A DNA stretch of 32,000 bases from Candidatus Saccharimonadota bacterium (GCA_041661045.1 JBAZVE010000001.1:90001-122000); one strand, 5' to 3'. Shown: positions 14,095 to 18,874, numbered from the stretch's first letter. Translations and numbers: made by a program. Notes: generated by a model not told the origin, from the sequence alone.

Positions 14095-14169
14095 TGGAGC
14101 AGGTAACGGGAATCGAACCCGTATTTCCGCCTTGGCAAGGCGGCATAATAACCATTATATGATACCTGC
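14095..14169 (-). tRNA. tRNA-Gly (anticodon GCC), CCA encoded
   Basis: The reverse complement reads GCAGGTATCATATAATGGTTATTATGCCGCCTTGCCAAGGCGGAAATACGGGTTCGATTCCCGTTACCTGCTCCA. The acceptor stem is GCAGGTA/TACCTGC. The anticodon stem is CCGCC/GGCGG with loop TTGCCAA. The T-arm is ACGGG-TTCGATT-CCCGT, and the discriminator is U. Confidence 0.92.
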
Positions 14170-14361
14170 GGCAGAGGGGATTTTAGCCAAAAATGCATCC
14201 TGTAGCAAGCTGCAAAAAAACTGGTTTCTTTCGCTCTCCAAGTTAGGTTTGCATAAACAACGGCTGATGAGCTACTTTTAAAGTATAAACGGCTTGCTTA
14301 AGCCACAAATTGAATGGAAATCTGTGCCCGGGCACATGTATTTTTGCGAAGCTCCAAATCA

Positions 14362-14389
14362 TTGACGCTTTGCGCTTTTGTGCTAGAAT
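14362..14389 (+). promoter_or_regulatory. candidate sigma70 promoter giving a leaderless or near-leaderless mRNA
   Basis: TTGACG (14362-14367), 16 nt, TGcTAGAAT (14381-14389). The ATG at 14398 is only 9 nt after the -10 box. Confidence 0.5.
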
Positions 14390-14397
14390 CTCCCTCT

Positions 14398-15153
14398 ATG
14401 CCAACTCCTGCGGAAACCGATCAGAAGGAAGAGATTGCCATTCTCATCGCAGATGAGATTGAGCATACCAGTACATTTCCCCTTTTTTCCAATACCAGGG
14501 GTAAGTTGGGTGTTTTGTCGCCTGGCTTGATGGATGAAAGCATCCGTGTCCGAGATTTTTTTAGCCTTATAGGCCTCGGCATAGAAAGGCTTGTAGAAAA
14601 GTGGGGGTCGGAAGCTCCTCAGTGGAGTTATGAACGCCTTGGGAATTATGTGGAGGAAAAGGACGCCAATGTGAATGTGGTTTTGCGGACCTACGGAGGA
14701 AAAGAATTTCGGGTCTGGAGCCTGATGCATCTCTTGGATAAATGGAACGCCGAAGGACGGGTGACACGAGGTTTTGTACCAGAGTATGCGGCCAGTGCAG
14801 GTGCTACTGTTTTCGCCCACACGGGAGAAAGACATATGGGATATACGGCACATTCATTTCATCATTTAGCCAGCAATGAGAAAACGGGAGAAATTTATGA
14901 TGGACCTAATCATATCAAACACTACCTTAAGCAGATTAGTATGCTTCTGCGCAGAGAAGTTCGCTTGGAGGAGCTTAAGACCGATGGGCCTGATAAAGCT
15001 GTCTATTTTGGGGGGTGGCGACTGCAAACGGATGGCGTAGCGAAGGCTTATGTGGGACCGGATAAGCTTTTGGATCACTTCCGTCAAACAACAGGAATCA
15101 ACCCCGAGGATTACCCGGAGTTGAAAGCTGTGTTTGAATTGAAGGCAGTTTAG
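14398..15153 (+). CDS. divergent ClpP/S14-like serine peptidase-fold protein (tentative)
   Basis: NVNVVLRTYGGKEF...YAASAGATVFAHTGERHMGYTAHSFHHLAS parallels ClpP's YINSPGG...GQAASMGAFLL.AG..GKR...P.S..MIHQP in order and spacing. The start is set at ATG 14398 because a promoter lies inside the ORF-track extension from 14314. Confidence 0.45.
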   Translation: MPTPAETDQKEEIAILIADEIEHTSTFPLFSNTRGKLGVLSPGLMDESIRVRDFFSLIGLGIERLVEKWGSEAPQWSYERLGNYVEEKDANVNVVLRTYGGKEFRVWSLMHLLDKWNAEGRVTRGFVPEYAASAGATVFAHTGERHMGYTAHSFHHLASNEKTGEIYDGPNHIKHYLKQISMLLRREVRLEELKTDGPDKAVYFGGWRLQTDGVAKAYVGPDKLLDHFRQTTGINPEDYPELKAVFELKAV

Positions 15154-17339
15154 AAGTCGTATCCGTCGCTTGGAGCGGCGGGTGCGGCGGGGCCTTCCGG
15201 CTTGCGAGCGGGTGCCGGAGCGGGGGCATCTTGGTAGAACTCTTTCATCGAAAGGTTGTAACGACCTTGTTCGTCGATCTTGAGGAGTTTTACGCGGACT
15301 TTGTCGCCCACTTTCACCACATCTTCCACCTTGTTCACACGGAAAGGACGGAGTGCGGAAATGTGCACCAATCCATCTTTACCAGGAACGAATTCTACAA
15401 AGGCTCCGAAGTCCATGATTTTCACCACGGTTCCCTCGAATTCTTCACCCGGAGTGGGTTCGTATACAATTGATTTCACCCAGTTGGCCGCCTTGGTTCC
15501 CGCTTCCTGATTTGGAGCGGTGATGATGACGAGACCGGTTTGTTCGATGTCCATTTCCACGCCACATTCGGCGGTGATCTTTTGAATGGTTTCTCCACCC
15601 TTACCAATCACATCACGAATGTAATCCGGATTGATTTGGATCTTCATGATGATGGGTGCGTATTTGCTGAGTTCACCACGAGGAGCGGGCAATACGGTCT
15701 GCATTTCGGCGAGCATTTGATTACAAGCGGTGGCGGCTTTTGACAGCGCCTCTCCCATCATTTGCAGAGTAATTCCCTTCACTTTGATGTCCATTTGCAG
15801 AGCGGTGATTCCGTCCGCGGTGCGGGCCACCTTAAAGTCCATGTCTCCGGCAAAGTCTTCAAAAGACTGAATGTCGGTGAGGATTTTGTAAGCTCCGGTT
15901 CCGGACTGTTTGAATTCATCGCTGCACACAAGACCCATGGCCACGGCGGAAACCGGCTTTTTGAGCGGTACTCCGGCGTCCATGAGTGAAAGGGTTGATC
16001 CACAGACGGAAGCCATGGAGCTGGATCCGTTACAAGTCATGATTTCGGACACCACAAGAATGGTGTATGGAAAATCTTCTTTGGCGGGAAGTACGGGAAG
16101 CAAGGCTCGTTCTGCGAGTGCTCCGTGTCCAATTTCACGACGGGAAGCGCCGCGAAGTCCTTTGATTTCTCCTACGGAATACGGTGGGAATACATAATAG
16201 TGAATGTATCGTTTTTCGGTGTCCACTTCCATGGAGTCGATGATTTGCGCATCGCCGGGCGCACCGAGTGTGGTGAGCGTGAGCGCTTGCGTTTCTCCTC
16301 GTTGGAAGAGAGCGGATCCGTGCGTTCGAGGCATGAGTCCCACTTCGATGCTGATCTTTCGAACTTCATCGAGGCGGCGACCGTCGAGCCGTTGGTCTCG
16401 CTCTAAAATATTGTTTCGCATGGAGTTGTCCATGACTTTTTCAAGTCCGGCCAGGAGAGCTCCTTTGGTGTAGGTTTCCGCTTCGATTTCTGCGGCAAAA
16501 TGCGCGAGCACTTTATCTTGAAGTGCGTGGATCGCGTCTTTGATTTCTTTCTTGGATCCTCCTTTGTAGATCGCGAGGTCGTCTGCGGTGAGCACGCCTG
16601 CAACCAGATTGATGATCTCGTCGGAGGCTTTGGCCACCGTGTACGAGCGGAGCGTAGGATTGATTTTTTGTACGAGTTGCATTTGGAAAGCACAGATTTC
16701 CTTGATGGTCTTGTGCGCGAGTTCCAGCGCTTGCAACATTTGTTCGTCCGTGAGCTCATTGGCTCCGGCTTCCACCATGGTGATGGCTTCCATTGTTCCG
16801 GCCACAAGCAAATCGAGCTGAGCCCCTTCCATTTCTTCAAAGGTGGGGAACACAATGAATTGATTGTTCTTCATTCCAATGCGCACTCCGGCCAAAGGCC
16901 CGGCAAAAGGCAAACCGGCCACGAGCATGGCGGCGGACATCCCTGTTATTGCGAGCACTCCGGTCTCATTCACGAGGTCAGCGGAAAGAATAGTAGCAAT
17001 CGCCTGAGTCTCGTTGGTGATTCCTTTTGGGAAGAGGGGGCGAATGGGACGATCGATGATACGAGCCTTTAAAATGGCTTCATCGCTGCTGCGGCCATCT
17101 CGTTTCATGAAGCGAGATCCTTTGATCTTTCCGGAGGCGTAGTAGCGTTCTTGGTATTCGATAGTAAGAGGGAAGAAATCCGCGTCGGGTTTTCCTTCTT
17201 CGGCCATCATGGCGGTGCAGAGCACGATGCTCTCCCCCATTTGAATGGTAACGGCCCCGTTCGCTTGCAAAGCAAGTCGCCCGGTTTCGAGCTTAATCTT
17301 GCGACCGGCAAGTTCGGTTTCAACAGTTTGTATAGACAT
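15150..17339 (-). CDS. pnp: polyribonucleotide nucleotidyltransferase (PNPase)
   Basis: 729 aa with two RNase PH-like halves, a KH region (IRDVIGKGGETIQKI) and an S1 domain (EGTVVKIMDFGAFVEFVPGKDGLVHIS). Confidence 0.95.
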   Translation of the reverse strand: MSIQTVETELAGRKIKLETGRLALQANGAVTIQMGESIVLCTAMMAEEGKPDADFFPLTIEYQERYYASGKIKGSRFMKRDGRSSDEAILKARIIDRPIRPLFPKGITNETQAIATILSADLVNETGVLAITGMSAAMLVAGLPFAGPLAGVRIGMKNNQFIVFPTFEEMEGAQLDLLVAGTMEAITMVEAGANELTDEQMLQALELAHKTIKEICAFQMQLVQKINPTLRSYTVAKASDEIINLVAGVLTADDLAIYKGGSKKEIKDAIHALQDKVLAHFAAEIEAETYTKGALLAGLEKVMDNSMRNNILERDQRLDGRRLDEVRKISIEVGLMPRTHGSALFQRGETQALTLTTLGAPGDAQIIDSMEVDTEKRYIHYYVFPPYSVGEIKGLRGASRREIGHGALAERALLPVLPAKEDFPYTILVVSEIMTCNGSSSMASVCGSTLSLMDAGVPLKKPVSAVAMGLVCSDEFKQSGTGAYKILTDIQSFEDFAGDMDFKVARTADGITALQMDIKVKGITLQMMGEALSKAATACNQMLAEMQTVLPAPRGELSKYAPIIMKIQINPDYIRDVIGKGGETIQKITAECGVEMDIEQTGLVIITAPNQEAGTKAANWVKSIVYEPTPGEEFEGTVVKIMDFGAFVEFVPGKDGLVHISALRPFRVNKVEDVVKVGDKVRVKLLKIDEQGRYNLSMKEFYQDAPAPAPARKPEGPAAPAAPSDGYDF

Positions 17340-17366
17340 AATTCTGAGCAGTTAGGGTAATAATAT

Positions 17367-17526
17367 TGATGCCGCTTACGCGGCGTTATTGCCTAGCAAA
17401 CCCTTTCGGGTTCGCTTGCTCAGAGGGAGGTTTCAAGACATCTCTTTGATCGACCTATGCAATGATGTGGCTTGCGCCACTTTTTTGCTTAGCAGACCCA
17501 TGGGGTCCGCCTAGTAGAGAGTTCTT
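17367..17526 (-). ncRNA. tandemly duplicated structured element in the pnp 5' leader (candidate cis-regulatory RNA)
   Basis: Two units 96 nt apart start at 17367 and 17463 (plus-strand coordinates). Each has two hairpins. On the minus strand, unit A reads GCCGC-GUAA-GCGGC and GCGAACCC-GAAA-GGGUUUGC. Unit B reads GUGGC-GCAA-GCCAC and GCGGACCC-CAU-GGGUCUGC. Confidence 0.5.
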
Positions 17527-17547
17527 GTGATCTCACCCTGAGCGGGC

Positions 17548-17572
17548 AAGAAAGAAGGGGCGTAGAGCCCCC
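17548..17572 (-). terminator. candidate intrinsic terminator after rpsO
   Basis: The minus strand reads GGGGC-TCTAC-GCCCC followed by TTCTTTCTT, starting 6 nt after the rpsO stop. Confidence 0.45.
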
Positions 17573-17577
17573 TCAGT

Positions 17578-17841
17578 TTACTTACGAAGTTGTAGTTGGT
17601 CCAGGACTTTCTCGTACTCGTCTTTGCTCTTCGTCTTTAGGTACTGGAGGTGACGGCGGCGCTTGCCCACCATCTTGAGCAGTCCTTGGCGAGAGTGCAA
17701 ATCATTTTTGTGACTCTTTAAGTGCTCGGTGAGCTGGTTGATGCGAGTGGTGAGAACCGCGGCTTGTACTTGCGCACTACCGGTATCCTTGTCGTGCTGG
17801 GCAAATTTTTTGATGATTTTCTTCTTGTCGTCTCGTTTCAT
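17578..17841 (-). CDS. rpsO: 30S ribosomal protein S15
   Basis: DTGSAQVQAAVLTTRINQLTEHLKSHKNDLHSRQGLLKMVGKRRRHLQYL is the canonical S15 sequence pattern. Confidence 0.95.
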   Translation of the reverse strand: MKRDDKKKIIKKFAQHDKDTGSAQVQAAVLTTRINQLTEHLKSHKNDLHSRQGLLKMVGKRRRHLQYLKTKSKDEYEKVLDQLQLRK

Positions 17842-17878
17842 AAATGGGATTAAAGATGATTGTACTTGAGCACGGGGT

Positions 17879-17907
17879 ATTTTATAAGAAAGGCCCTAAA
17901 AATGCAA
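17879..17907 (-). promoter_or_regulatory. candidate sigma70 promoter for rpsO-pnp
   Basis: Minus strand: TTGCAT (17907-17902), 17 nt, TAAAAT (17884-17879), ending 38 nt upstream of the rpsO ATG. Confidence 0.5.
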
Positions 17908-17926
17908 GGTTTTCCTTTAGATCAGG

Positions 17927-18874
17927 CTAAATCCAGCGTTTGAATCTAAAGAAAACAAGCATCACAAAGAGAATAAATAGCATTCCTCCGGCCAAAACAA
18001 AGAAAATGAGCGGGTGCTGGGCATAGGGCAGATGGACATTCATCCCATACATTCCCGCCAAAAGGTTGAGCGGCAGCATCACTACGGAAAAAACCGTCAG
18101 TGTTTTGATCACATTGTTGGTGGTATGGGAAATGAGGGATTCATTGGTGTCTTGTAAGGATTCCACCAACTCTTTCAAATTCTCCAAATTGCTCCAAATC
18201 TTTTCCACTTTATCCAGCACATCGTCAAAATAAACCTCCAAACTGTCGGGGAGGAATTTCTTATTCTTGTGCTCAATCTGTGCCACCACGGTGCGGAGCG
18301 GTGCCATCACACGACGGAATCCAATGATGTTCTTCTTGGTGTTCAAAATCTCCTTGAGCATATCCTTCTGTCCTCCCAAAAAGGCCTCCTGTTCCAGGGA
18401 GTTCACATTGGACTCGATGTTGTCGAGCAAGGGGAAGAGTCCGGCAAAAAGGTGATCCACAATTTCATACATCAAATACCCACTGGAATGTCCCATCACT
18501 TTTTTTCGTTCGGTGAGGCTTTTTTCGGTCAATGCGTAAAAATCGTTGAGTGGCTTGAGCCCTCCCCAATGCACGGTGATCAGCAAGTTTGCTTTTATAA
18601 AAATATCCACTTCTTCGCTCACTATCCTCTGTTTGCGTTTATCAAAATAAGGAATGTGCAAAATAATGAAAAGATAGTCTTCGTATTCGTCCACTTTGGA
18701 GCGTTGATTCTCGGAAAGACAGTCTTCAATATCCAGTTCGTGGAAGCCGTGCTTCTCCTTTAAAGCAAGCAAAGATTCGGCATCCGGATCCTCCACCACG
18801 GTCCATGTGAGTTTTTCAAAACTGATGGATTGTTGCATGTTTTCAATATAAGCACTTAAGATCTCTTGGCGCAA
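17927..18874 (-). CDS. corA: CorA-family magnesium/cobalt transporter
   Basis: YGMNV (GMN motif) lies between two C-terminal TM helices, with a CorA-like soluble N-domain. The ORF-track start is TTG at 18874, and the first ATG is at 18838. Confidence 0.85.
   Translation of the reverse strand: MRQEILSAYIENMQQSISFEKLTWTVVEDPDAESLLALKEKHGFHELDIEDCLSENQRSKVDEYEDYLFIILHIPYFDKRKQRIVSEEVDIFIKANLLITVHWGGLKPLNDFYALTEKSLTERKKVMGHSSGYLMYEIVDHLFAGLFPLLDNIESNVNSLEQEAFLGGQKDMLKEILNTKKNIIGFRRVMAPLRTVVAQIEHKNKKFLPDSLEVYFDDVLDKVEKIWSNLENLKELVESLQDTNESLISHTTNNVIKTLTVFSVVMLPLNLLAGMYGMNVHLPYAQHPLIFFVLAGGMLFILFVMLVFFRFKRWI

Follow-up and report, generated by a model that had tools for sequence, protein, structure and literature searches.

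What is encoded in the spacer between the gene of ribosomal protein S15 (rpsO) and that of polynucleotide phosphorylase (PNPase, pnp) in an uncultured bacterium with a small genome? The question is raised by a stretch of 32,000 nucleotides (nt) from Candidatus Saccharimonadota bacterium (GCA_041661045.1 JBAZVE010000001.1:90001-122000), below called the window, in which rpsO (17578-17841) and pnp (15150-17339, its AUG at 17337-17339), both assigned with Pfam, lie on the minus strand and are separated by 238 nt (17340-17577). Coordinates are counted from the first letter of the window, and the features of the spacer are given on the minus strand unless stated otherwise. Autoregulation of PNPase through the rpsO-pnp spacer is a textbook example of post-transcriptional control and, to our knowledge, has been worked out in Escherichia coli and Streptomyces only. 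The initial annotation of the window had noticed here a tandem duplicated module of two hairpins and regarded it as the functional element. The analysis presented below leads to another answer. In our opinion, the spacer is a structured 5' leader of pnp that is conserved in Candidatus Peribacteria and has two mutually exclusive folds, which would control translation when flipped by nucleases, the duplicated units being decorations of this leader; we consider this reading as a whole somewhat more probable than its negation.

Orthologous spacers were collected by a scan of genomes based on the PNPase protein and blind to the RNA, which gave 19 loci. Fifteen of these belong to metagenome-assembled genomes of Candidatus Peribacteria, Peregrinibacteria or 'Gracilibacteria', with PNPase 66-91% identical and rpsO directly upstream, and 13 of the 15 rpsO-pnp spacers of this Peribacteria type contain a common core. 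The 5' part of its consensus is GCCC-n-CUCAGGGUGAG-AUCAC-AAGAnnUCUC-(variable) and the 3' part is GAGAnnUCUU-GAAAC-CUCCCUCUGAGUA-n-GGGC-(variable)-CCC-uaau-UACUCAG-A-nnn-AUG. When a conserved 26-mer of the core was compared with a metagenome collection, all eight matches fell in rpsO-pnp spacers. Further lineages were added through contigs encoding S15 homologues, so that about 30 distinct leader variants were available in total; the spacer of one locus from a second sample (L028) is identical to that of the window. The organism of the window is itself a member of the Candidate Phyla Radiation (CPR), belonging to the Peribacteria/Peregrinibacteria. A literature search found no description of a pnp leader from the CPR, and the conserved bistable leader appears to be undescribed so far.

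In the first fold (State 1), an upstream segment of the spacer pairs with a middle segment to form the short helix P1 (consensus GCCC/GGGC) and P2, an irregular stem of about 26 base pairs (bp). The 5' strand of P1, UUGCC at 17545-17549, pairs with 17389-17393. P2 begins with P2a of 13-14 bp, where the strand CGCUCAGGGUGAG (17532-17544) pairs with the mid strand CUCCCUCUGAGCA (17417-17429). It continues through an internal loop with the halves AUCAC (17527-17531) and GAAAC (17430-17434), followed by a 5-bp helix, a 2x2 mismatch and a 4-bp helix. This distal part, P2b, is built by AAGAACUCUC (17517-17526) and GAGAUGUCUU (17435-17444), the latter strand lying within the 26-mer used for the metagenome scan. 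The P2 apex is the most variable part of the leader. It measures 72 nt in this genome, 14-40 nt in most others and only 4 nt (GAAA or GUGA) in L024 and L025, and in 19 of 28 leader variants it carries the motif GGUCGA (here 17450-17455), for which no complementary partner was found within the leader; the smallest leaders have a bare GNRA loop instead of this motif. Both covariation and RNAalifold support P2, which is a long imperfect stem (at least about 20 bp) of the kind expected in pnp leaders. As a side observation, the P2 sequence CACAAGAAC (17517-17529) is also present in the S15 coding region, in His-Lys-Asn codons, and an extra copy just 5' of P1 in L004, L055 and L059 may be a coincidence or a further competing partner for the UCUUG strand.

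In the second fold (State 2), the middle segment, CUGAGUA ... GGG in the consensus, pairs instead with CCC ... UACUCAG, a look-alike situated before the start codon, and the helices S2a and S2b are formed. The last 7 nt of the mid strand (CUGAGCA, 17417-17423) serve as the 5' strand of S2a, whose 3' strand UGCUCAG (17344-17350) ends 4 nt before the pnp AUG; this distance is 4-8 nt in most leaders, and S2a abuts the AUG in L012, L024 and L025. S2b consists of UAGG (17392-17395) paired with CCUA (17353-17356; consensus CCCU). The strand shared by both folds comprises 17417-17423 and 17392-17395, and both pairings of the mid strand covary.

Covariation was evaluated on an alignment of 27 leaders (A4), which was registered by hand. 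Variable hairpins were excised beforehand because they differ by up to about 70 nt, the linkers were padded with N, and MAFFT kept the alignment gapless. One leader, L011, was too divergent to register and was left out of the pair counts; its S2a is recognisable by eye as GAGUAAGA/UCUUACUC. The anchor CACAAG recurs in S15 codons and in GGUCGACACAAG (L002, L022, L024 and L034).

In this alignment, 81.6% of the cells of State 1 are paired, 12 pairs (30 cells) being changed on both sides, and 85.7% of the cells of State 2 are paired, where 8 of 13 pairs (31 cells) are changed on both sides. Neither covariation score was reached in 500 shuffles, and controls with slid strands were paired to 34-50% for State 1 and 29-47% for State 2. 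The contributions of the individual helices differ. Four of the five pairs of P1 are changed on both sides, as in L010 (GCUG/CAGC) and L014 (GCCAU/AUGGC), and its three central pairs were predicted independently by RNAalifold. For P2a, S2a and S2b, the proportions of paired cells are 81.5%, 85% and 87%, with 7 of 14, 5 of 9 and 3 of 4 pairs, respectively, changed on both sides. P2b is uninformative in this respect since 8 of its 10 pairs are essentially invariant; it is present in the minimum free energy (MFE) fold and in the RNAalifold consensus. In the internal loop, UCAC and GAAA are invariant, while the opening base of the 5' half and the closing base of the 3' half vary together (A·C in 20 leaders, A-U in 4 and G-C in 3). 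Changes in State 2 are illustrated by individual leaders: CUGAGCA/UGCUCAG stands in this genome in place of the consensus CUGAGUA/UACUCAG, and the counterpart in L013 is GAAUCGU/ACGAUUC. In L060, all four helices are changed coordinately (UUCAG/CUGAA, CUGAAUAGU/ACUAUUCAG, CCAGCG/CGCUGG and GGA/UCC).

Slid controls and a test free of any alignment were added because the hand register is biased towards pairing. In the latter, the RNAduplex energy of the strands belonging to one leader was compared with that of strands combined from different leaders. The duplex of the 5' and mid strands had an energy of -14.76 kcal/mol for cognate and -12.30 kcal/mol for non-cognate combinations, and the duplex of the mid and 3' strands -10.67 versus -8.55 kcal/mol; neither difference was reached in 20,000 permutations. 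The control duplex of the 5' and 3' strands showed no such preference (-5.86 versus -6.15 kcal/mol, p = 0.85). Structure prediction is in accordance with both states. RNAalifold returned State 1 unprompted on the same alignment, State 1 is the MFE fold of 18 of 20 full leaders, and after deletion of the 5' strand State 2 was found in the MFE fold of 20 of 20. In the full-length leaders, the energy gap between the states averages +3.6 kcal/mol and is only +0.8 kcal/mol in this genome. It may be concluded that two mutually exclusive helices share one strand and that each of them is backed by covariation. Two other possibilities were considered for State 2 and abandoned: a transcription attenuator, as no U-run follows S2a, and an 11-nt receptor of the GAAA tetraloop (UAUGG/CCUAAG), to which L022 and L021 come close and which is not conserved.

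Signals around the spacer bear on how such a leader might be made and read. A terminator-like hairpin, GAGGGGGC-UCUAC-GCCCCUUC (17554-17574), with 8 pairs, 6 of them G-C, in a terminator scan, follows rpsO and has the U-rich tail UUUCUU (17548-17553); an equivalent hairpin with a U-run is situated 3' of rpsO in orthologous spacers. The position of the leader on the coding strand, downstream of the rpsO terminator, is a feature shared with pnp leaders of the E. coli and Streptomyces type. A scan for one promoter type found no sigma-70-like site on either strand of 17200-18100 and hence no second pnp promoter of this type inside the spacer, where the terminator tail is only about 6 nt away from P1. 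Since a promoter-like site is absent between the rpsO terminator and P1, the 5' strand of P1 and P2 should be made within the transcript that reads through from rpsO. Motifs resembling a Shine-Dalgarno (SD) sequence (of the GGAG, GAGG or AGGA type, 5-15 nt before the start) precede only 1 of the 27 long open reading frames (ORFs) in the window, so the host, judged by its sequence, appears to initiate translation largely without SD pairing. Because 26 of the 27 ORFs have no such motif upstream, the structure at the start site should matter.

These features suggest a simple mechanism. In State 1, with P1 and P2 formed, the 15 nt before the AUG would be free and translation would be on. In State 2, the mid strand would pair beside the start codon, the SD-less initiation region would be buried and translation would be off. 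RNase III would cut the long P2 stem, PNPase would digest the released 5' strand of P2 from the new 3' end, and the freed middle strand would capture the start region, which would result in negative autoregulation of PNPase. Units A and B, described below, would not be the regulator; they would represent portable cassette copies in the P2 apex and inside the State 2 hairpin, copied locally around rpsO. The conservation of the leader, both sets of base pairs, the nesting of the units and the distribution of the cassette were observed directly. We infer which fold is on and which is off and, by analogy with E. coli and Streptomyces, that RNase III and PNPase act as the trigger.

The nearest known system is the pnp leader of E. 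coli, where RNase III cuts the leader stem, PNPase removes the processed 5' end, and decay of the mRNA and CsrA-mediated repression follow (PMC5029454). The initial annotation had pointed to the RNase III-processed stem of E. coli, and P2 is indeed a long stem analogous to those processed by RNase III in E. coli and Streptomyces. The Peribacteria leader occupies the same place on the same strand after an rpsO terminator that requires read-through, it contains a long imperfect stem upstream of pnp, and the logic proposed is shared: once the stem has been cut, loss of its 5' strand would alter what becomes of the pnp mRNA. The differences are also considerable. There is no similarity detectable by sequence or model, and no internal pnp promoter was found here in the scan mentioned above. 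The strand that would be freed is complementary to the start region and covaries with it, so that repression by refolding alone would be possible, whereas in E. coli attack by RNase E and binding of CsrA take place; no SD sequence is available here to be masked. In Streptomyces coelicolor, RNase III cuts the rpsO-pnp hairpin at a [4/4] internal loop (PMC10126417), and in the Peribacteria leader the invariant AUCAC/GAAAC loop, which amounts to 3x3 to 4x4, may plausibly correspond to this site of cleavage; an alternative hairpin that would mask the start is not known to have been described for Streptomyces. Translational riboswitches and leaders of ribosomal protein genes likewise have one strand with two partners of comparable stability, one of the folds occluding initiation, as would be the case for State 2, but no ligand or aptamer was identified here, and the effector proposed is a pair of nucleases rather than a bound molecule. 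In distant Patescibacteria, where pnp is not beside rpsO, another imperfect hairpin of about 20-25 bp (predicted at -25 to -35 kcal/mol) lies 15-25 nt upstream of pnp (L016 2891-3003, L018 1133-1245, L019 2891-3003 and L017 2891-3003). A long stem in the pnp leader seems to be a recurring theme.

Several points weigh against the proposed switch. The function of the leader is deduced from sequence, and the hand register, made with the structures in mind, favours pairing, above all where helices are short (P1 and S2b), a bias offset only in part by the slid controls and the test without alignment. P2b and the internal loop are invariant and therefore silent on pairing, and they may be a sequence-specific binding site instead. 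As the two states are nearly isoenergetic, switching might also take place with the 5' strand still present. The mean unpaired probability at the AUG, estimated by eye, drops only modestly, from about 0.56 in full to about 0.42 in truncated leaders. Two relatives with adjacent rpsO and pnp (L008 and L009) have only a terminator between the genes and no leader. Finally, the ERLEFLGD signature of RNase III was not found in 320 kb, a result that is uninformative, and the Peribacteria genome paper does not mention RNases.

The hairpins that first drew attention to this spacer can now be placed within the leader. Unit A (17463-17510) has the RNA sequence GCGGACCC-CAU-GGGUCUGC UAAGCAAAAAA GUGGC-GCAA-GCCAC AUCA, consisting of hairpin 2A (17492-17510), a linker (17481-17491), hairpin 1A (17467-17480) and AUCA, and it is inserted into the loop at the apex of P2. 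Unit B (17367-17415), GCGAACCC-GAAA-GGGUUUGC UAGGCAAUAAC GCCGC-GUAA-GCGGC AUCA, consists in the same order of hairpin 2B (17396-17415), a linker with 17389-17395, hairpin 1B (17371-17384) and AUCA. Its linker carries both the 3' strand of P1 (GGCAA, 17389-17393) and the 5' strand of S2b. Thus, unit B is nested in the State 2 hairpin, with 2B between S2a and the 3' strand of P1 and with 1B capping S2b. In a global alignment of the two units (48 and 49 nt), 36 of 49 positions are identical, and the score of this alignment was reached in none of 2000 shuffles; for MAFFT, an N placeholder was set at the gap in the loop of unit A. A repeat finder based on exact seeds reported no direct repeat at the units because their similarity is scattered over short identical blocks.

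Most of what had been described for the units proved to be correct. They start exactly 96 nt apart with TGATG on the plus strand (17367 and 17463) and share a linker sequence at 17389 and 17485; compensatory changes affect two pairs of hairpin 1 and one pair of hairpin 2, and hairpin 2 has as its third pair a G·U that exists on the minus strand and would be an A/C mismatch on the plus strand. Three loops are GNRA tetraloops as described (GUAA, GCAA and GAAA), while the fourth, CAU, is not. That the hairpins form at the level of RNA, in the strand of the rpsO-pnp transcript, is borne out by four spacer copies, in which 13 of 13 pairs are kept and 4 are changed on both sides, against 25-40% pairing in slid controls. 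In addition, the sense strand folds more stably than the antisense strand in all six known cassette copies, by 1.5-7.4 kcal/mol. The arrangement is not tandem in the head-to-tail sense, as about 47 nt of the conserved core (GGUCGA, the 3' strand of P2 and the internal loop) separate the units. The four hairpins of the units were rejected as intrinsic terminators, since on the minus strand a U-run follows none of them.

Conservation in orthologous spacers, the test that had been set for the module beforehand, went largely against it: among about 30 leaders, the complete unit A occurs in this genome only and unit B in three lineages, and the conserved, covarying part of the spacer is formed by P1, P2 and the State 2 hairpin. 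The covariance model R1, built from the four spacer copies and searched in 223 kb from 26 sources, scored 66.5 bits for unit A and 75.3 bits for unit B; compensatory changes are present in the orthologues of unit B from L002 (74.6 bits) and L020 (73.6 bits). Such a search had been recommended, and it did reveal further copies near rpsO: two strong matches beyond the training set, L020 461-508 (62.6 bits) and L001 706-753 (61.5 bits), are situated in the 5' untranslated region (UTR) of rpsO. They lie between the conserved promoter-like TTGCTT-N17-TATAAAAT and the rpsO AUG and end 18-20 nt before it, so the cassette is not specific to the control of pnp. No copy was detected elsewhere in the 223 kb or in the 32-kb window. 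Rfam, where a match had likewise been sought, contains no family corresponding to the spacer element: nothing beyond two tRNAs passed the gathering score in the whole window, and Rfam 15 at E<=10 gave for 17200-17950 one chance match to a snoRNA and neither a leader family nor an S15 leader. The observation of two hairpin units is confirmed. Their interpretation is supported in part: they are hairpins at the RNA level in the pnp transcript, but the key element is not a duplicated regulatory module.

All six cassette copies lie within about 500 nt of rpsO, at three sites and in a narrow clade. The window has copies in the P2 apex and at site B, the place of unit B, and none in the rpsO 5' UTR; L020 has them at site B and in the 5' UTR, L001 in the 5' UTR only and L002 at site B only. 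The stem of hairpin 1 at site B of L020 is GUGGC/GCCAC, as in unit A of this genome, and copying among the cassette sites therefore fits. A sequence TCAAGTACAATCATC in the rpsO 5' UTR of this genome (17855-17869) stands exactly at the cassette site of L001 and L020 and may be the remnant of a lost cassette; both the cassette and TCAAGTACAATCATC are absent from the rpsO 5' UTR of relatives such as L022 and L034. With copies only near rpsO in 223 kb and no terminal inverted repeats seen, a dispersed element resembling repetitive extragenic palindromes or miniature inverted-repeat transposable elements was rejected. A half-cassette (UAAGCAAAACC and a GUGG...CCAC hairpin) was noticed directly after the rpsO stop codon and 5' of P1 in L005 (2811-2851); it is a weak R1 match (16.7 bits) and would be a fourth location of cassette-derived sequence.

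Hairpins of unrelated sequence are found at the positions of the units in L049, L005, L003/L043, L006, L007, L014 and L015/L050, and none in the minimal leaders. Five positions are permissive for hairpins, namely 5' of P1, the P2 apex, before and after the 3' strand of P1, and the rpsO 5' UTR. At the cassette spot of the last, L048 has a different GC-rich hairpin (GTCGGCGCGGCCGAC). L004/L055 and L059 encode identical S15, yet their pnp leaders differ: in the former, the P2 apex contains a GGACCC...GGGUC hairpin and P1 is followed by a GGCGCAAGCC hairpin, both of which are missing from L059. Since contigs identical in S15 differ in them, the hairpin decorations must be gained and lost very fast. 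The units are best viewed as self-contained stable hairpins in insertion-tolerant loops, which spread by local copying and are selected to keep folding.

Could the units nevertheless do more? It is conceivable, though we regard this only as a tentative suggestion, that the leader represents a new class of autoregulatory RNA switch, whose controlled enzyme would work by exonucleolytic digestion and not by binding, and that the cassette tunes it or serves as an operator for a protein such as S15. A rather unlikely view in the opposite direction would deprive the units of any function of their own and treat them as GC-rich hairpins that are neutral or slightly stabilising, that spread locally through duplication or gene conversion into insertion-tolerant loops and that must fold on themselves to spare the core. 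Their patchy occurrence among close relatives, the rapid turnover between the S15-identical genomes L004 and L059 and the occupation of the five permissive positions by hairpins unrelated in sequence all agree with this, as do the similar flanks of the 5' UTR site and site B (CUCAA/GAGCAA ... AUCAAU-UUAA-CCC), which favour local recombination. The compensatory changes, together with the GNRA loops and the conserved G·U, point to a fold under selection; still, they are compatible with a constraint to stay inert. This explanation overlaps largely with the place given to the units in the switch proposed above.

That the cassette is an autoregulatory operator of S15, which changed places between the pnp leader and the 5' UTR of rpsO and through which rpsO and perhaps pnp are controlled, seems doubtful to us. 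Its occurrence 18-20 nt before the rpsO AUG in L001 and L020 and the proximity of all six copies to rpsO speak in favour. Moreover, hairpin 2 has a conserved G·U as its third pair, next to which 4 of 6 copies have G-C, a step resembling the GU/GC determinant of S15 recognition (PMC4684408), and S15 operators, among them the pseudoknot of E. coli and the three-way junctions of Geobacillus and Thermus, are structurally diverse between phyla (PMC4137082, PMC4684408). However, unit B has GU/AU and L001 has GU/GU in place of this step, which is situated 2 bp from the hairpin base rather than one helical turn from a three-way junction. A junction is formed in State 2 only, at site B, and the geometry seems not to correspond to the bipartite S15 site. 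In this genome and in L002, the rpsO 5' UTR contains no cassette, both units of this genome are downstream of rpsO with only TCAAGTACAATCATC at the cassette site, and most lineages have no cassette anywhere. The unrelated hairpins at the same positions in other lineages and the lack of any match to an Rfam S15 leader even at E<=10 also argue against this explanation.

Slightly less probable still, and in our view unlikely, is a leader that acts as a sensor of a ligand, a protein or temperature, like a riboswitch or an RNA thermometer, with the internal loop and GGUCGA as the sensing site and no nuclease step. Two full-length states only a few kcal/mol apart would suit it, as would the AUCAC/GAAAC loop and neighbouring helices, which are invariant across lineages with PNPase only about 67% identical, and the frequent GGUCGA (19 of 28 apices). 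Furthermore, pnp of E. coli is cold-induced and is also repressed translationally by PNPase without RNase III (PMC5029454). Against this, GGUCGA is dispensable, as L024 and L025 cap P2 with a plain GNRA loop, no known aptamer was matched in the Rfam scans, and the 26-bp stem with its internal loop looks like a substrate of RNase III (PMC10126417). A role of the hairpins on the plus strand, for example as the terminator of an antisense RNA like SraG, which occupies the same spacer in E. coli (PMC5029454), is most improbable: hairpin 1A (17467-17480) is followed by TTTTTT up to 17486 and is terminator-like in the scan, but a T-run follows one copy only, no plus-strand gene ends there, the plus strand has A/C mismatches in place of the G·U pairs and a less stable fold in every copy, GNRA loops exist only on the minus strand, and no promoter-like site was found on either strand.

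Some further features of the locus should be mentioned. A gene of CorA is located upstream in the window together with rpsO and pnp. A promoter-like sequence CTTGCATT-N-TATAAAAT was noticed at 17879-17908, upstream of rpsO, and the block TTGC(C/T)TT ... TATAAAAT(A/G)CC(C/T)CTGC is conserved before rpsO throughout the Peribacteria loci; a short leader ...UUUAAUCCC...AUG comes after it. On the plus strand, an ORF of 279 amino acids without a Pfam match (14314-15153) converges on pnp, sharing 4 nt with the 3' end of that gene. The two tRNA genes, which are the only Rfam matches in the window, are situated at 868-939 and 14098-14169 on the minus strand.

Summarizing, the conserved bistable pnp leader, which may be kin to the known autoregulatory leaders of pnp, is a more valuable result than the duplicated units. 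The units illustrate clearly how stable cassettes of hairpins move from one permissive loop to another in adjacent leaders, and such cassettes can mislead the search for motifs in a single genome, as happened in the earlier reading of the units. The leader itself combines, in uncultured CPR bacteria with small genomes and without SD sequences, the same place and the same type of long stem with a covarying decoy of the 5' strand beside the start codon. This built-in decoy gives a simple and testable mechanism of refolding, and with it a candidate cis-regulatory RNA is added for a phylum in which almost none have been described.

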